A stretch of 64,000 nt of DNA, taken from an uncultured virus (IMG/VR IMGVR_UViG_3300000302_000058). Taxonomy: Duplodnaviria > Heunggongvirae > Uroviricota > Caudoviricetes. Below the pieces are notes generated by a model that ran no database searches, was not told where the DNA came from, and saw nothing but the letters and a program-made list of their open reading frames with translations. Below are positions 15,163 to 24,004 of the stretch, piece by piece. Made by a program: the position numbers and the translations under genes. Position 1 is the first letter of the stretch. Every line of letters starts with the position of its first letter. The stretch lies in IMG/VR virus record IMGVR_UViG_3300000302_000058. The stretch is one strand, 5' to 3'.

Positions 15163-15951
15163 ATGGCTCGTAGAATAGAGCATTATCCCGGTGAAATTTT
15201 AAATTCAATCGGTTCTATTTTTATTAAAGACGTAGAAACTCCAAAAGGGCAAGTAGGTCGTTTTGCTTTAGTTGAGTGTGGAAAATGTCATAAACCTCAT
15301 ATTCAAAAACTTTGCAATGTTATAAATGGCAACCATGCTTGTTATGAGTGTGGATTAGAGAAGAACAAACAAAACATACAAGAAAAAATAGCTAACCATT
15401 ATCATTATGGTGATATACTCAATGAAAAAACTGGCTCTGTTTTTATTGCAGAAGTTTCGCATGAGGGATATGCTAGACGCAGGGCGATTGTACAATGTGG
15501 CCGCTGTGGTACTATTTATGAAGCCCCTATTTCAAACGTGGTTAATGGAGCATATTGTTTAAAGTGTTCTGATTGCCATAATTCTAATGCTTCTCGGACA
15601 GTAGAAAAAATTTTAAAAGATAATAATATTCCTTATAAAAGAGAGTACACTTTTAAAGATTTAATTGTAGACAAAAAAAGACGATTACGATTTGATTTTG
15701 CGGTTTTTCTTGAAAGCGATTATATTTTATTGATTGAAGTAGATGGTCAACAGCATTTTGAACCTGTTGAATATTGGGGTGGAGAAGAAGCGTTTGCTCG
15801 TCTACAAATAAACGACCAACGAAAAAATACTTATGTAAATGAACATAGTAATCTTTTTCTTGTACGTATTCCATATACCGATTTCGATAATATTAATGAA
15901 AAGTTTATAATGGATATATATAAAAAATATCAACAATTAGTTGAGAATTAA
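15163..15951 (+). CDS. Free-standing putative homing endonuclease (Zn-ribbon repeats + DUF559/Vsr-like nuclease)
   Basis: Repeated CxxC motifs; LRFDF...LIEVDGQQHF...DQRKN...LVRIPY; more AT-rich than neighbours. Confidence 0.7.
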   Translation: MARRIEHYPGEILNSIGSIFIKDVETPKGQVGRFALVECGKCHKPHIQKLCNVINGNHACYECGLEKNKQNIQEKIANHYHYGDILNEKTGSVFIAEVSHEGYARRRAIVQCGRCGTIYEAPISNVVNGAYCLKCSDCHNSNASRTVEKILKDNNIPYKREYTFKDLIVDKKRRLRFDFAVFLESDYILLIEVDGQQHFEPVEYWGGEEAFARLQINDQRKNTYVNEHSNLFLVRIPYTDFDNINEKFIMDIYKKYQQLVEN

Positions 15952-18210: not shown

Positions 18211-18510
18211 ATGAAACTGATTCAATATACAGGACCATTTTCCGCAGGACAGACTATCACCATTCCTGCTCAGATTGATTATAGTTATATACATATTGGA
18301 TTCCAAGTTCCCAAGAGACAACCGATTGAGCTGATTGACTCTGTAGCGTTACCGATTGACTTTACTTTGAACGATGTTGGTTACAGAGTCAACAACACGG
18401 GGATTTTGGAGTTCGATGAAACGGCAGAGTCCGCGATAGAAATTAGAATAGAGCGTGACTTGCCTTGGGAAAGTATAATTGACATTGCCTACAATGTTGC
18501 GAGTCAGTAA
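18211..18510 (+). CDS. Hypothetical structural protein
   Basis: 99 aa, SD aggtga, operonic. Confidence 0.65.
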   Translation: MKLIQYTGPFSAGQTITIPAQIDYSYIHIGFQVPKRQPIELIDSVALPIDFTLNDVGYRVNNTGILEFDETAESAIEIRIERDLPWESIIDIAYNVASQ

Positions 18511-18530
18511 GAAAGGGGAGATAAAAGGAA

Positions 18531-19973
18531 ATGCCAAATGGTGAAGACAAACGATTAAACTTTACATTCAAGATTTGGGATGCACAAGCTAACGCTTATC
18601 GTCCTGTTTATATTGCCCCTGATGGTACTGATACAGTACAGGGTGATGTTAAACTTTCTGATGCTACCAATAGCACGTTGAATGCGGCCAGCGGTATGAC
18701 AGCCGCAACGCCAGCAGCAGTAAAGGCGGTTCAGGATAGCGCCAATAACAAGTTAGACAAGACCACAGGCGCTACTCAGACTGTGGCTAGTGCGGTAACG
18801 TTTAATAATGCTATAACCGCCCAGCGAGGGGTTACAGTACCTACTGGGCAGTTCTTTACAGGTAATCTTAGCGGCAATGCTACGACAGCTACAACGCTTC
18901 AGACAAGCCGCCAGATTTCAGTAAAGATTGGAAACGGCACAGCTGGTACTGCTAATTTTAATGGTGGCGCTAATGCGGCAATTACCATTCCGCAGGTCGA
19001 TGCCTCTGTGATTACAACTGGCACGCTTCCTCTTTCCGTTTTGCCGCAAGGAGCATTGGAGAGATTGGTCAAGGTAGCTGACGAAGAGGCTCGTTTTGAT
19101 TTGACAACAGATGATGTTCAACTTGGCGATAGCGTTCTTCAGATTAATACTGATACAATGTATATCGTTATCGACACAGCACAACTAAATAATGATGCTG
19201 GCTACGAAGAATACGCAGCTGGAACAGCGGTTTTAGCTGAGACGGCAGAAAAAGTGCAACATCAACTTACCGTTCAAAAGAATGGAGAAACACAGTTTGT
19301 CTACGATGGTTCCGTGGCTAGAACGATTAATATCGCTTCTAGCTTTGCGGACTTGACCGGACAAATCGCCGCAAATCAGATTCCTGATGGTATTATAACA
19401 GATACTAAATTAGGAGTCAATTATGCTGGTTCGTCTTCTAAGGGCGGAGCCGCTACAAGTGCTAATAGGTTAACTACTGCCCGAGAGATTGAATTTACAG
19501 GGGTCGTAACAGGCAGCACTAGTTTTGACGGCACAACCGATGTTTCTGTTACCACTGCTATTGGAAACGGAGCCATTACAACCGGCATGATAGCAGATAA
19601 CGCTATTACTACAGATAAATTATCCAACAATTCAGTCACGAGTGCTAAAATCGTAGACGGCACAATCGTAGCAAGTGATATCGCTGATGCTACCATCACA
19701 GGTGCTAAATTAGTTAACTCAACGATTACAGGTGGTAAGATTGCGGCTAACACCATTACTGCCACCAATATAGCTAATAATACGATTACAAATGCGAAAA
19801 TGGCCGCAAACAGCATTAGTTCTAATAATATTATTGATGGGACTATTGTTGGAGCCGATATCGCCGCAGATACTATCACCTTAAATAAATTGAATCCTGA
19901 AGTAGGAACTGTTGCTGTGCAAACAACTCAGCCAACAGAAGACAATGTTCGAATTTGGGTGCAACTTGACTAA
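18531..19973 (+). CDS. Tail fibre protein
   Basis: GDVKLSDATNS...AATPAAVK phage fibre repeat; tandem 10-aa ITxxKIAxxT repeats; C-terminal VGTVAVQTTQP...IWVQ. Confidence 0.8.
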   Translation: MPNGEDKRLNFTFKIWDAQANAYRPVYIAPDGTDTVQGDVKLSDATNSTLNAASGMTAATPAAVKAVQDSANNKLDKTTGATQTVASAVTFNNAITAQRGVTVPTGQFFTGNLSGNATTATTLQTSRQISVKIGNGTAGTANFNGGANAAITIPQVDASVITTGTLPLSVLPQGALERLVKVADEEARFDLTTDDVQLGDSVLQINTDTMYIVIDTAQLNNDAGYEEYAAGTAVLAETAEKVQHQLTVQKNGETQFVYDGSVARTINIASSFADLTGQIAANQIPDGIITDTKLGVNYAGSSSKGGAATSANRLTTAREIEFTGVVTGSTSFDGTTDVSVTTAIGNGAITTGMIADNAITTDKLSNNSVTSAKIVDGTIVASDIADATITGAKLVNSTITGGKIAANTITATNIANNTITNAKMAANSISSNNIIDGTIVGADIAADTITLNKLNPEVGTVAVQTTQPTEDNVRIWVQLD

Positions 19974-20031
19974 ATTTTTGGGTAAAAGATAAAAGTAATA
20001 AACATTTTTGAGCGAAAGGACGATTATACAT

Positions 20032-20121
20032 ATGCTTAAAGCGATAAGTAAAAATCGCTTGGGGGGGGGCAATAGCTCTCTAAGTCTAAGCGATTTCTTC
20101 AAGGTGGTGATTTTTCAGTGA
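20032..20121 (+). CDS. 29-aa leader peptide containing a G9 tract
   Basis: SD gaaagga (20014-20020), ATG 20032, MLKAISKNRLGGGNSSLSLSDFFKVVIFQ*; stop overlaps next start (GTGA). Confidence 0.6.
   Translation: MLKAISKNRLGGGNSSLSLSDFFKVVIFQ
20061..20069 (+). repeat. G9 homopolymer (candidate contingency locus)
   Basis: ttGGGGGGGGGcaat. Confidence 0.85.
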
Positions 20122-20561
20122 GAGATTTAACTAAACTGAAAGTCCGCACCGGTTCAGGGTATGAAAGTTTTTGTCCATATCCAATTGGAGGCATCTATAT
20201 CAGCTATCTTAATACTTCTCCAGCCTCTATTTGGGGTGGTTCTTGGACTCAATTAGGAAATGCACTTGTCGCTTTTGCAGGTGTATCAGATGGACAAAGC
20301 GGATATGCTTCGCCGCAGACTATCGATGGCTCTCTATATATTAGTGTAGACCAAATGCCTACACACGCGCACAGTTTAACTGAAACGGTATTAGGTTATG
20401 ATGCCGGTAAACGCAACTTTGCTTCTGGCTCAACTTACACTTATGGTAGCCGGTCTAATGTCGCAACCAGCGGTGTAGGTGGGGGGGGCAATTCATCCCA
20501 CGCCACCAGTCTTTCTATGCTTGGAGACGCACTGCGTAAACTCTTGCGAGGTGATAAATAA
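20118..20561 (+). CDS. Fibre-tip/baseplate-type paralogue 1, frameshifted at G8 (family C-terminus ends at 20539 in another frame)
   Basis: YPIGGIYISY...SPASIWGGSW...QMPTHAH; alternate frame after G8 reads QFIPRHQSFYAWRRTA*. Confidence 0.8.
   Translation: MRDLTKLKVRTGSGYESFCPYPIGGIYISYLNTSPASIWGGSWTQLGNALVAFAGVSDGQSGYASPQTIDGSLYISVDQMPTHAHSLTETVLGYDAGKRNFASGSTYTYGSRSNVATSGVGGGGNSSHATSLSMLGDALRKLLRGDK
20481..20488 (+). repeat. G8 homopolymer (candidate contingency locus)
   Basis: ggtGGGGGGGGcaat. Confidence 0.85.
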
Positions 20562-21007
20562 TGTCTCACCTCAAATATAAAAAAGACGGCAGCTGGATAG
20601 ATTATGCCACTGATATATATCCAGTGGGGAGTGTGTATCTGACTTATACGACTGAGAGTCCTGCAAATTTATTCGGCGGTACATGGACAAGAGTCGGTGA
20701 CTCGTTAGATGAAGGCGGTTTGATAGGTTTCTACTGTCAATCATCAAAAAATGAGGGTGGATACGATTCTGTTGGGGCTATGGCAGGTTGGACCCAGATT
20801 TCGTCAAGCCATATGCCTTCCCACCGACACCAGATAACTCTAACCAAAGACGCTTTTGGAGTGTCTGGCGCTGGAAATTATGTTCTTATGGATAGTACAC
20901 AAAGAAATCCGCTTACTTCTACAGGGCAATATACATCCAGTGTTGGTTCATCACAGGCTTTTTATCCTAGACACGTAACCGTTTACATGTGGAGAAGAAC
21001 AGCTTAG
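20561..21007 (+). CDS. Fibre-tip/baseplate-type paralogue 2
   Basis: IYPVGSVY...SPANLFGGTW...HMPSHRH...YMWRRTA. Confidence 0.8.
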   Translation: MSHLKYKKDGSWIDYATDIYPVGSVYLTYTTESPANLFGGTWTRVGDSLDEGGLIGFYCQSSKNEGGYDSVGAMAGWTQISSSHMPSHRHQITLTKDAFGVSGAGNYVLMDSTQRNPLTSTGQYTSSVGSSQAFYPRHVTVYMWRRTA

Positions 21008-21047
21008 ATTAGCAAATAGTATAATCCTTTCAGAAAGGATTTATTAT

Positions 21048-21521
21048 ATGGCTAATATTTATTATAAAAATGGAAGTAGCTGGACAAGCCTTTTGTCTAT
21101 AATTTATCCAGTAGGAAGTATATATATTACCATTAATGATACAAGTCCTGCTAATTTGGTAGGAGGAACATGGAACGAATTAAAAGGGCGTTACTATCTT
21201 CGTAGCTATACTGAGTCTGATACAGGGTACGATGACCCGGGTACTACTGGTGGCTCTAATTATATCACAGTTAAACATCTACCTTCACACACTCACGGTA
21301 TGTCTTCCAGTGGTGCTCATAAACATTCTGTATATTATTCTTCAAATGGTACACGCAGTGGCAGCTATTGGCAGGCTAATACTGAATTAGGGTCAGATGG
21401 AACTTCTACTTCATTTATGAAGGAATCCAGTGCTCACACACACACTATTACCGCTACAGGCGACGGAGAAATCTATCTTCCTGCGTATTACGTTGTTCAC
21501 ATATGGAGACGTACTTCTTAA
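21048..21521 (+). CDS. Fibre-tip/baseplate-type paralogue 3
   Basis: IYPVGSIY...SPANLVGGTW...HLPSHTH...HIWRRTS. Confidence 0.8.
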   Translation: MANIYYKNGSSWTSLLSIIYPVGSIYITINDTSPANLVGGTWNELKGRYYLRSYTESDTGYDDPGTTGGSNYITVKHLPSHTHGMSSSGAHKHSVYYSSNGTRSGSYWQANTELGSDGTSTSFMKESSAHTHTITATGDGEIYLPAYYVVHIWRRTS

Positions 21522-21529
21522 TTTCTTTT

Positions 21530-21560
21530 AGAGGGAATCTTTAGATTCCCTCTTTTTTTT
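21530..21560 (+). terminator. Rho-independent terminator
   Basis: agagggaatct / agattccctct plus T-run. Confidence 0.8.
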
Positions 21561-21563
21561 ATT

Positions 21564-21608
21564 GGGCAAAAGCAATAAAATCTTGGTTTAGATTTTTCAT
21601 AGTAATAT
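21564..21608 (+). promoter_or_regulatory. Putative phage-specific promoter
   Basis: gggc aaaagcaata aaatcttggt ttagattttt catagtaata. Confidence 0.55.
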
Positions 21609-21648
21609 AGATTATGACCATACAAGACAAGAAGGGAGAAAAGGCATT

Positions 21649-22242
21649 TTGGACGCTGTTACTACCCTTCTATCTCAATTATCTATAGAAGGAATTATTC
21701 TTGTTATAGTTCTTTTCGCGGTTGCTGTCAAGTTCTTAGGCGAGCTTTTTGAATATCTTTATACCAAACTAAAGAAGTATTTTGATATTAAAGACGCTAA
21801 AGAAGAGCAGCATGAAGAGATTATGAACAAGCTAAACGCCCTAGAGACTCGTTCTGTCAAACAGGAAGAGCGTAGCGAACATCGCCAAGCTCAAGTTGAC
21901 AAGATAAGTAAACAGCTAGACGAGCAAGACCGTAAGAGTGCTAATTTACAACTAACGCTAGAGAACCAAACCAAGGAAATCTCTAGCCTCAAATCACAGA
22001 TTGGCACTTTGACAGAACGAACGCAAGACTCAACTCGTGCTTATTTGATAGATAAACATCACCACTTTTGCTATCAGATTCACGGTATTGACGATATGTC
22101 TCTTCAGGATATGGAGAGACGTTTTATGTATTACAAGGCAGCTGGCGGCGATACTTTTATTGACGGTTTAATGGAAGAGGTTCGTGCTTTGCCACGCCTT
22201 ACCTTAGAACATATGTCGGGTCAGATTAGAAAGGAGAACTAG
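21649..22242 (+). CDS. Membrane protein with coiled coil (holin-associated type)
   Basis: N-terminal TM helix, coiled coil, C-terminal YKAAGGDTFID...LP. Confidence 0.55.
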   Translation: MDAVTTLLSQLSIEGIILVIVLFAVAVKFLGELFEYLYTKLKKYFDIKDAKEEQHEEIMNKLNALETRSVKQEERSEHRQAQVDKISKQLDEQDRKSANLQLTLENQTKEISSLKSQIGTLTERTQDSTRAYLIDKHHHFCYQIHGIDDMSLQDMERRFMYYKAAGGDTFIDGLMEEVRALPRLTLEHMSGQIRKEN

Positions 22243-22887
22243 ATGCCCGCAGAACTTAAAGATTTCGTGGTCAATCTAAAATCCCTTTCTCAGGATATAG
22301 AAGACCCTATCATTCAAGGCGGTGGCGATGCCAATGGCCGCACACTCAGAATCATCTTCACTCAAGAAGCCGCAGACATGTTCACTCCATATACCAAAGT
22401 CTATCTCTATTGGAATCATCAACAGCTAAAGACTTACGGAGTGAACGTCTTTACCAAAGTTTCTAAGGACGAAAGTTGTTTTAATCCTCCCGTTTGGGAA
22501 ATTCACTGGCCTAAAGCGATGTTGCACGAGGGCGATGTTCTTTGTTGCATTAAGCTCGTAGATGATATTTCAATCTCTCCTTCTAACAACTTCCTAGTTC
22601 ACGTTCTTCAAGACCCGAACGACGGAAGTTCTTTTGTTGTGGGGGATGATTATAGTATCTTTGACAAAGCTGTTATCGAAATGAACGCTGCTACTCAAAA
22701 AGCCCAAGAGCAATTAGAGAAACAGCAAGAAGAATTTGAAGCTATGCGGCAAGAGTTTACCACCTTAAAAGATGATGTTCAGACTGCGCTAGATAAATCT
22801 AACGAAGCCTATGATATGGCTCAACAGGCATTGGAAGCGGTACAAGGAGATTTGACCGCTTTTGGTGTATATATGACAGAATACTAA
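22243..22887 (+). CDS. BppU-like (baseplate upper) N-terminal domain protein
   Basis: GDANGRTLRIIF motif plus C-terminal coiled coil. Confidence 0.5.
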   Translation: MPAELKDFVVNLKSLSQDIEDPIIQGGGDANGRTLRIIFTQEAADMFTPYTKVYLYWNHQQLKTYGVNVFTKVSKDESCFNPPVWEIHWPKAMLHEGDVLCCIKLVDDISISPSNNFLVHVLQDPNDGSSFVVGDDYSIFDKAVIEMNAATQKAQEQLEKQQEEFEAMRQEFTTLKDDVQTALDKSNEAYDMAQQALEAVQGDLTAFGVYMTEY

Positions 22888-22907: not shown

Positions 22908-24004
22908 ATGCCCGATAAGATTGTACGTTTTTTCCACGGCGCTGAAGATGATATTGATACCAAGCTCGGCGATGGTACTATCAACGAATCAGACCTAGTT
23001 ATCACTACTAACGATAAACTAATCTACATTGACGAAAACAAGTCTAAGCACATTCTTGGCAACGGCGAAGGTGGAGATACAGAAACCACAGAAGAACACG
23101 AAGTTCAGCTGGGCACGGGCGGTTCAATCGGAGGTCTAGAAACGGGTGATACTATTCCCGTTGGAACAAGCCTTGACGAACTAATTAAGATGCTTACTCA
23201 AAAGGCAGTACCTCCTACTTACACTCAGCCCGGTGTAACTCTTCGTAACTCTGCGGGTCAAGCCGCTGGTGCTTACGAAGTGGNNNNNNNNNNNNNNNNN
23301 NNNNNNNNNNNNNNNNNNNNNNNNNNNNNNNNNNNNNNNNNNNNNNNNNNNNNNNNNNNNNNNNNNNNNNNNNNNNNNNNNNNNNNNNNNNNNNNNNNNN
23401 NNNNNNNNNNNNNNNNNNNNNNNNNNNNNNNNNNNNNNNNNNNNNNNNNNNNNNNNNNNNNNNNNNNNNNNNNNNNNNNNNNNNNNNNNNNNAGACCACA
23501 GACGCGCAGAACTTCCAGCTTACCGATGGCTCTGTTACTTTCTATGCTACTGCCACTTACGGCGATGGTCAAATCAAGAATGACAACCTTGGTCAGCCTT
23601 CTCCCGAAGGACAGATTAAAGCTGATTCTAAGAACAGCGCCAATTTTGTTTTTACCGGTCAACGTAACATGTTCTACGGTACTGGTGTTGGTGCAGCTCC
23701 AGAAGCTTCTTCTGAGAGTGTTCGTGGACTATCCGGCACAAAGCTCAATCCTACACAAGGATATAGTTTCAACATTACTGTAGCACAAGGACAGCAGTTT
23801 GTCCGTATCGCTTACCCTGCTACTCTCCGCAAGATTACAAAGTGCTTCTACGTTGAGCAGAACACCGACCTTGCTGAGAACTTTGCGGAGACTACTGTTT
23901 CTGTAAACGGTGCTAATGGTGCGGCTGGTGCTGATTATCGCGTGCTTACTTACGAGATGGCTGTTCCTGCTGCCGCCGCAATGACTCTACAGGTACAGAT
24001 TTAA
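22908..24004 (+). CDS. Fibre/structural protein spanning an N gap
   Basis: Post-gap frame TTDAQNFQ...KNDNLGQP...GQRNMFYG is continuous with ORF 23669..24004. Confidence 0.65.

Follow-up and report, generated by a model that had tools for sequence, protein, structure and literature searches.

Phase-variable G tracts in a tail-fibre tip cassette of gut phages, with off frames that may relay ribosomes to the next tip gene

Homopolymeric tracts are responsible for phase variation in the surface genes of Campylobacter, Neisseria, and Haemophilus, where they constitute contingency loci. Termination-reinitiation coupling at UAAUG or AUGA, with a Shine-Dalgarno (SD) sequence masked by structure, is familiar from RNA phages and operon studies. 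Phages also vary their tail fibres by invertible segments, such as those of Mu (Gin) and P1 (Cin), and by diversity-generating retroelements (DGRs) such as that of BPP-1. The locus described here lies in a stretch of 64,000 nucleotides (nt) from an uncultured virus of the Caudoviricetes (IMG/VR record IMGVR_UViG_3300000302_000058), hereafter called the window. It comprises three consecutive genes for presumed tail-fibre tips, and the first of them contains a run of eight G residues (G8).

Campylobacter phages of the genus Fletchervirus carry hypermutable polyG tracts of 7-11 residues in receptor-binding genes (Sorensen et al. 2021, Cell Rep 35:109214), as summarised in an excerpt of bioRxiv 10.1101/2025.10.21.683753. 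In the same excerpt (Gomez, Barrick and Waters), short homopolymers of the coliphages T2 and T4 are described as reversible frameshift switches for bet-hedging, and homopolymers of at least six residues are depleted (0.77x) in coliphage tail fibres; the excerpt makes no mention of translational coupling. Examples of phase variation in Campylobacter are given in an excerpt of PMC10877375.

The G8 tract of the window (20481-20488; features are on the + strand unless noted) codes for the Gly-Gly-Gly motif conserved in the tip family, which the other paralogues encode by mixed Gly codons in the alignment of tips. A homopolymer scan of the window (GC 39%) gives two G runs of at least seven, namely G8 and a G9 run at 20061-20069, and no such C run. 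In the G8 state, tip paralogue 1 is read from GTG at 20118 to 20561 as a protein of 147 amino acids (aa) with a wrong C-terminus; the ORF reads ...GVGGGGNSSHATSLSMLGDALRKLLRGDK and ends ...NSSHATSLSMLGDALRKLLRGDK*. The final A of its stop TAA (20559-61) is the first base of ATG 20561-63, the start of tip 2, which gives TAATG at 20559..20563. At G9 (or G6/G12), the ON-frame tail QFIPRHQSFYAWRRTA (20489..20539) is read up to TAA 20537-39, which is 22 nt before the G8-frame stop and 21 nt before ATG 20561, and the intact form has 140 aa. Its end, ...FYAWRRTA, matches the C-termini of paralogue 2 (...YMWRRTA) and paralogue 3 (...HIWRRTS); the C-terminal motif of the family is ...W(R/Y)RT(A/S), with W and R invariant in 17/17 aligned tips. 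Since paralogue 1 regains the conserved C-terminus with G9, this length is the intact state, and the other frames do not give the intact conserved protein. In the third frame (G7/G10), the stop TAA at 20578..20580 follows after 29 codons, 17 nt beyond ATG 20561, and natural variants of 153/154 aa end at it (...PQI). The first-pass annotation had placed the end of the G8 frame on ATG 20561 and that of the G9 frame 22 nt earlier at 20539; sequence and translation confirm both positions. Homopolymers of at least about seven residues within or just before a coding region are represented by G8 in tip 1 and by G9 in an upstream open reading frame (uORF), and an upstream stop overlaps a downstream start at TAATG 20559-63 and at GTGA 20118-21.

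In our view, the fairly probable explanation is a slipped-strand contingency locus in a tip gene, with wrong frames shaped to bring ribosomes to the next, masked start and with the uORF as a gate for tip 1. Tips 1-3 would be alternative tail-fibre tip genes, and the G8 run would be the phase tract in the first. G9 would give the intact 140-aa tip, and the tips made from G8, G7, and G10 would have a wrong C-terminus. Ribosomes that come off the tract in one or the other wrong frame would meet no stop before the start region of the next tip; the G8 frame would stop within a hairpin loop on the ATG itself, and the third frame just beyond the hairpin. Off-state ribosomes would melt the hairpin and would be handed over to tip 2 by termination-reinitiation coupling. 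Were there no hand-over, early termination would leave tip 2 closed. The leader G9 tract would gate tip 1 likewise, one frame of three getting to the start.

Tract-length variants of tip 1 occur in public assemblies. A search with the tip 1 protein gave two 90%-identity clusters with 28 members, of which 21 distinct sequences were examined and 7 members were not listed. Among the sequences listed, the G9 intact form (140 aa) comprises 11 sequences on 33 contigs, and a form with an interrupted tract (...GGGRQ, 140 aa), in effect locked on, comprises 3 sequences on 34 contigs. The G8 form (147 aa) is found as 2 sequences on 6 contigs, the G10 form (154 aa) as 3 sequences on 4 contigs, and the G7 form (153 aa) and a deletion form (119 aa) as 1 sequence on 1 contig each. 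The intact 140-aa homologues are within P0005-P0017, and G9 or locked-on forms are the majority (67/79 contigs). In the locked-on alleles (P0004, P0018, and P0021), ...GVGGGRQ replaces ...GVGGGGQ, so that an Arg codon interrupts the G run, and these are the most frequent forms at 34/79 contigs. Both G8 forms share the ...RGDK end codon despite substitutions, and all four G7/G10 forms end ...PQI. The cassette is also bridged by contigs of four runs from four studies at 92-96% identity. In these, the leader tract is G8 in X5 and X7 and G9 in the other two, and gap counts allow G8 at 20481 to be inferred for X1 (0 gaps) and X7 (3 gaps, all elsewhere) only, at 3.6-5% divergence.

The deletion form P0019 (119 aa, one 2.2-kb contig) has tip 1 ...SRSNVA joined straight to PQI*. 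It resembles a deletion of ~100 nt between short direct repeats TAATGTC.CA (window ~20454-20468 and 20557-20570), which would take out the tract, the tip 1 tail, and one arm of the tip 2 SD hairpin.

Relatives with larger arrays came from a metagenome scan with tip 2 (best 80 of 134 loci kept) and a scan of viral contigs with 17 aligned tips (77 loci kept, from the best 80 of 464). Only the tip alignment found relatives among IMG/VR viral contigs; scans of these with single proteins (fibre; tip 3) found none. Megablast of 18500-22300 against phage records gave no match, and a genome-contig scan with P0007 gave one irrelevant 37% fragment only. The locus L002 (identical to L091; 138/144-kb contig) is syntenic with the window, with flanks 86-88% identical, and has 11 tips and 9 G tracts between the fibre gene and the common downstream genes. 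Further arrays are present in L004/L005, L006/L142, L082, L116, L118/L119, L133, L141, L148, and L154, most contigs being 100-145 kb. Tracts of at least eight residues in these loci are all G on the coding strand and none is C. Near-identical pairs differ mainly at the tracts: L118/L119 have 0 mismatches and 2 gaps over 12,435 nt, L006/L142 have 1 mismatch and 4 gaps over 2.9 kb, and L004/L005 are 99.4% identical and differ at 3/3 tracts. Near-identical genomes thus differ in tract length in tip 1 (G7-G10 forms), in the leader (G8/G9), and in these three pairs. On such sequence comparisons, the tract appears to be a real slipped-strand on/off phase switch and not an error or a knockout; the toggle proposed in the first-pass annotation is supported by the G7-G10 and interrupted alleles in assemblies and by the pairs of relatives.

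The codons that follow the tracts are free of hidden stops. Intragenic tracts (class 1) lie 16-20 codons before the tip end, in 21 non-redundant cases, 19 of which have an assigned next start. At class 1 junctions, the ON frame ends 18-30 nt before the next tip start, and neither wrong frame meets a stop within its first 21 codons. An off-frame stop between the tract and the ON stop is present in 0/22 tract-bearing tips (0/44 frames). Within the last 54 nt, 24/31 tract-less tips have an off-frame stop, versus 0/22 tract-bearing tips (p 3.5e-9), and with an equal window of the last 42 nt the counts are 19/31 and 0/22 (p 1.3e-6). Counted by frame, 22-29 of the 62 off frames of tract-less tips carry a stop. 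Tips with and without a tract are intermingled, and they have diverged to the same extent. L154 and L082 provide a matched pair whose peptides are almost alike: L154 has a G7 tract and lacks a hidden stop, and L082 has a broken tract and a hidden TAA created through a synonymous Asn codon.

The off frames also end at particular places. Among 38 off frames at the 19 junctions, 17 end at -2 to -9 nt from the next start, 17 at +1 to +17, and 1 at -24, and 3 traverse the whole next tip gene; at 17/19 junctions, one off frame ends just before or on the next start. The alternative frames of 39 intact tips contain a mean of 9.4 stops. Zero stops are found in 3/78 of these frames, which are exactly those fed by an upstream tract. 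With the one in L142, there are four bypass off frames, of 164-215 codons, that stay open across the next tip gene (L002 4049-4585; L006 4495-4989; L142 3129-3629; L148 7223-7871). Three of them terminate at the second tip downstream: two (178 and 164 codons) in a TAATG on its start, and that of L142 (166 codons) 4 nt past the start. The lack of earlier off-frame stops and the clustering of stops at the next start are far beyond chance.

The start of tip 2 is predicted to lie in an SD-sequestering hairpin (20548..20572), in which GAGGTGA 20548-54 pairs with TCACCTC 20566-72 (tip 2 codons 2-4) over 7 base pairs (bp). The predicted 11-nt loop contains both TAA 20559-61 of the G8 frame and ATG 20561-63. 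The ON stop lies 8 nt before this hairpin, the G8-frame stop lies in the loop, and the third-frame stop lies 5 nt after the hairpin. The predicted probability that the SD region is unpaired, P(unpaired), is 0.25 for tip 1, 0.20 for tip 2, and 0.08 for tip 3. Across the 18 junctions folded, P(unpaired) of the SD averages 0.22, compared with 0.44 for 51 other genes' starts in the window (Mann-Whitney p 6e-5), and hairpins analogous to that of tip 2 occur at most of these junctions. By prediction only, the downstream ribosome-binding site is masked by a structure that an upstream ribosome would open. The purged off-frame stops, the stops at the next start, and the masked SD provide comparative evidence by which a relay by translational coupling, the hand-over to tip 2 proposed in the first-pass annotation, appears well supported. 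The sequences show the polymorphism of the tract, the geometry of the frames, the purged stops, and the predicted SD masking; the coupling itself, and how far tip 2 output would differ between states, we infer.

A second switch, absent from the first-pass annotation, is the G9 tract in the mini-ORF upstream of tip 1. This leader uORF (20032..20121, 29 codons) starts at ATG 20032 after an SD-like GAAAGGA (20014-20020) and ends at TGA 20119-21, which overlaps the tip 1 GTG (GTGA). Its tract (20061..20069) keeps the uORF in frame (ON) at G9. In the window leader, the two other post-tract frames meet a stop within 1 and 3 codons; the G8 tract of X5 and X7 would move the stop to 20081. The tract lies within a strongly folded hairpin (z -4.27; 0/200 shuffles fold as well). 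Downstream, the tip 1 SD AAGGTGGTGA (20101-10) and GTG 20118-20 form an element at 20101..20120 with predicted pairing to tip 1 codons 5-11.

Leader tracts of relatives (class 2) have the same layout: short uORFs with an SD-like GAAAGGA, an ATG, 10-14 codons, the tract, and 15-25 more codons. The leader GAAAGGA is often inside an ATCCTTT/AAAGGAT hairpin. One post-tract frame arrives at the tip start (TAATG, TAAATG, GTGA, or a few nt beyond). The remaining 28 frames of 14 leaders stop within 0-7 codons, which by a rough geometric estimate has a probability of about 1e-7 to 3e-11. In one leader of L002, this uORF is present but lacks a tract. In a single anecdote, the states of L004/L005 co-vary, with leader 1 ON/off, leader 2 off/ON, and tip b off/ON. 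Two other roles of the leader tract were dismissed. Fusion of the uORF to tip 1 through a tract change is ruled out by a TAG at 20073-75 in the tip 1 frame. A function as promoter spacer (-35/-10) was rejected, since a simple scan gave no + strand promoter match and the tract is inside a uORF with its own SD and ATG.

Other observations were made around the leaders. The T5 run at 20111-20115, between the tip 1 SD and GTG, is T4 in 3/4 runs (X5, X7, and X8), which makes the SD-to-start spacing of tip 1 one shorter. The hairpin ATCCTTT..(loop)..AAAGGAT with the SD GAAAGGA recurs before tip 3 (21018-21047) and ahead of many leader uORFs in L002, L004, and L006; it may be a common element for regulation or processing. 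At L006 3565-3903, a 102-aa ORF ends in the C-terminal motif of the fibre (...KIWVKI). Ahead of it is a very short G9 uORF of its own, and the sole productive frame of this uORF ends in TAAATG on the ORF start. The adaptor end of the fibre may also be phase-variable.

Tip 2 output could, in addition, depend on the state of tip 1. Given the positions of the mRNA channel and the helicase of the ribosome, a ribosome stopped at 20537-39 should leave 20548-72 closed, and those in the off frames should melt the hairpin. With the hairpin closed in the ON state and melted in the off states, tips 1 and 2 would be reciprocal. We hold only tentatively that the ON state yields less tip 2, because reinitiation over 21 nt is feasible and the geometry in relatives is heterogeneous. 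About as likely is a plain fail-safe against polarity, in which the open off frames equalise the downstream tips and the tract switches only tip 1, with no trade between tips. The ON stop precedes the next start by 18-30 nt at all junctions, near enough for reinitiation, and in the window the 21 nt from ON stop to ATG are within the usual reinitiation range, so that tip 2 may be made equally in all three states. At L004 4983 and L002 3084, the final ON codons contain the anti-SD or are directly followed by it, so ribosomes in the ON frame should also unfold the hairpin and all three states should free the SD. The tip 3 SD is sequestered as well, although no tract feeds it. The fail-safe, however, leaves the SD sequestration unexplained, as a free SD would be a simpler one. 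It also does not account for the four off frames that pass over an entire tip gene to finish at the following one. In the window, the ON stop is 8 nt before the hairpin and both off stops are in or beyond it. Strictly exclusive expression of tips 1 and 2, which the first-pass annotation favoured, is not supported in that form: only 21 nt separate the ON stop from ATG 20561, and in some relatives the anti-SD is within the last ON codons.

Besides the spacing of the ON stop and the anti-SD positions, further points speak against a contingency locus with a relay. The hairpins and pairing probabilities are predictions. The hairpin of tip 2 is only 7 bp and its SD is strong, so independent initiation may suffice. 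The next-start codons were assigned by heuristics and the control gene starts by mechanical ORFs. The Fisher tests overstate independence because paralogues share ancestry, and their p-values are optimistic. The contigs give the majority tract length per sample and not switching within a population, and some of the tract-length differences could be assembly error. The exact 1-nt TAATG overlap is found at 6/19 junctions only, the window included. The first-pass annotation had regarded this exact overlap as an argument against a sequencing error and had asked whether homologous cassettes keep the off-frame stop at the next start. The tract-length variants indicate that the tract is indeed no error, and 17/19 junctions keep a stop within -2 to -9 nt of the next start or on it; the exactness itself is not conserved.

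Those 6/19 junctions also speak for a chance by-product, by which stops would simply be common in the AT-rich SD-ATG spacer, TAATG would be meaningless, and G8 would be a dead allele or an assembly error. The spacer is indeed crowded with TGA 20552, TAA 20555, and TAA 20559, and a 23-codon open off frame alone has a probability of ~0.2 at the measured 0.066 stops per codon. The explanation is nevertheless already disfavoured and strikes us as highly improbable: stops occur in 0/44 off frames behind tracts versus 22-29 of 62 in tract-less tips, off stops cluster at the next starts of 19 junctions, zero-stop bypass frames exist solely behind tracts, and the 147-aa form recurs on 6 contigs as 2 distinct sequences with the same end codon. 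Slippage at the RNA level would instead make G8 the standing genotype, with the intact tip produced by a transcriptional or ribosomal -1/+2 slip and both products coming from one allele. Long homopolymers can provoke polymerase slippage, and the X1 and X7 contigs keep G8 at 20481 despite 3.6-5% divergence. Against this, the DNA itself occurs as G7, G8, G9, and G10, with the G9/locked-on majority of 67/79 contigs, and a slippery heptamer or stimulatory element was not seen, though none was sought. Because the length of the DNA tract itself varies, the ribosomal or transcriptional slip that the first-pass annotation had offered as an alternative mechanism is not needed, and we judge it very unlikely.

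Beyond the contingency locus with its relay, a more speculative possibility, which we hold to be less likely than not, is that the G tracts route ribosomes to one of three positions each and that the cassette of tips acts as a translational switchboard. One tract length would finish tip n, and a second would stop on the start of tip n+1 and hand over. The third would overrun the start of tip n+1 or, in four relatives, cross tip n+1 stop-free toward tip n+2, and mini-ORFs with their own tracts would gate each unit. If this were true, a single operon would provide a combinatorial set of receptor-binding tips, heritable and yet reversible, and would need no promoter switch, recombinase, or retroelement for it.

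The + strand from 1 to ~34,600 of the window is a tail and lysis module with a tape measure, a 480-aa fibre with the Phage_fiber_2 repeat, a holin, and an endolysin. The replication genes are on the - strand and include a PolIII-alpha-like polymerase with 36% identity to SPbeta YorL; the phage is a large SPbeta-like gut phage. Parts of the stretch occur in 20/24 of the runs listed, from 9 studies, with no RNA run among them, and the organism-labelled ones are chicken gut or faeces metagenomes. The tail-fibre shaft gene (18531..19973, 480 aa) matches Pfam Phage_fiber_2 at 30.9 bits (cut-off 22) and PHROG tail-fibre families, has a syntenic 479-aa homologue in L002, and likely carries the tips. 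Tip paralogue 2 (20561..21007, 148 aa) and tip paralogue 3 (21048..21521, 157 aa) have no tract, and the SD GAAAGGA of tip 3 lies in a AATCCTTT/AAAGGATT hairpin. All three tips pass the cut-off (27 bits) of Pfam PF21939 Gp10_C, the C-terminal domain of T4 baseplate gp10, with scores of 36.6 bits for tip 1 (37.4 bits for its ON form P0007), 48.8 bits for tip 2, and 62.1 bits for tip 3. Pfam has no power to separate the ON and OFF forms, as all match profile positions 6 to ~86 only. For P0007, a natural homologue with an intact end, AlphaFold gave a mediocre model with a mean predicted local distance difference test (pLDDT) score of 65.1; it was used solely for its last ten residues, which form a confident strand. 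In a Foldseek comparison of this mediocre model (pLDDT 65) with the PDB, the top rows were T4 baseplate and gp10 chains, none of them significant (best E 0.45). The tips are presumed to be small receptor-binding heads of the Gp10_C type. In the cultured Faecalimonas and Dorea phages matched by tip 3, the domain is the C-terminus of a larger tail protein and there are no arrays.

An intrinsic-terminator-like hairpin with T8 (21530..21560; a 10-pair stem followed by the T run) closes the fibre-tip operon, and a similar element follows the last tip of L002. A simple consensus scan found no sigma-70-like promoter on the + strand between the fibre gene and tip 1 (19974-20117). With no promoter there and a terminator only after tip 3, the tips most likely share one transcript, and control among them is plausibly translational. 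Elsewhere in the tail module, an HNH/homing-endonuclease-like gene (15163-15951; PHROG 559, E 7e-34) is present amid the structural genes, and a run of N, masked or withheld sequence, occupies 23285-23493 within ORF 22908-23783.

Phase-variable receptor-binding genes of phages have so far been documented mainly in Campylobacter phages, and the same principle is seen here in a family of ~140-kb phages from gut metagenomes of chicken and human, in which a single cassette has as many as 11 tips and 9 tracts. The layout suggests that the wrong frames of a contingency locus are under selection and steer ribosomes to another gene. If true, this would be a compact and promoter-free form of host-range diversification, and purged hidden stops after a tract would be a signature telling functional tracts from accidents. 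'Frameshifted' tail genes in metagenomic phage genomes should, in that case, be neither repaired nor discarded. Phase variation, translational coupling, and a homopolymeric tract in combination, or this system itself, were not found in the literature searched. The type of switch is known, and its deployment in an array of tips, the uORF gates, and the selected and routed off frames were likewise not found described there.

The Fletchervirus tracts, known here from a summary, are similar in that G runs in phage receptor-binding genes change length and create subpopulations with different binding proteins. The window phage differs in host and lineage, being ~140-kb, SPbeta-like, and from gut metagenomes; compared with what that summary describes, its cassette has up to 11 small separate tips, uORF tracts, purged hidden stops, routed off-frame stops, and bypass frames. 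The T2/T4 homopolymers, as far as the excerpt describes them, also serve as reversible frameshift switches in phage genes, whereas the tracts here are concentrated in the tip cassette, which holds the only 2 G runs of at least seven in 64 kb. As in Mu, P1, and BPP-1, alternative fibre tips would arise from a single phage genome, but in contrast to Gin, Cin, and the DGRs there is no recombinase or reverse transcriptase, and the choice is made by tract length and, it appears, at translation. The bacterial contingency loci share the reversible switching of a surface-interaction gene by slipped-strand change of a coding G run. They are, however, treated as on/off knockouts of one gene, and here both wrong frames are apparently selected to deliver ribosomes to the downstream cistron. 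Classical translational coupling has the same overlapping stop and start and a paired SD that the upstream ribosome would open. Its upstream frame is fixed, whereas here a mutable tract picks among three frames, with three stop positions relative to the hairpin.

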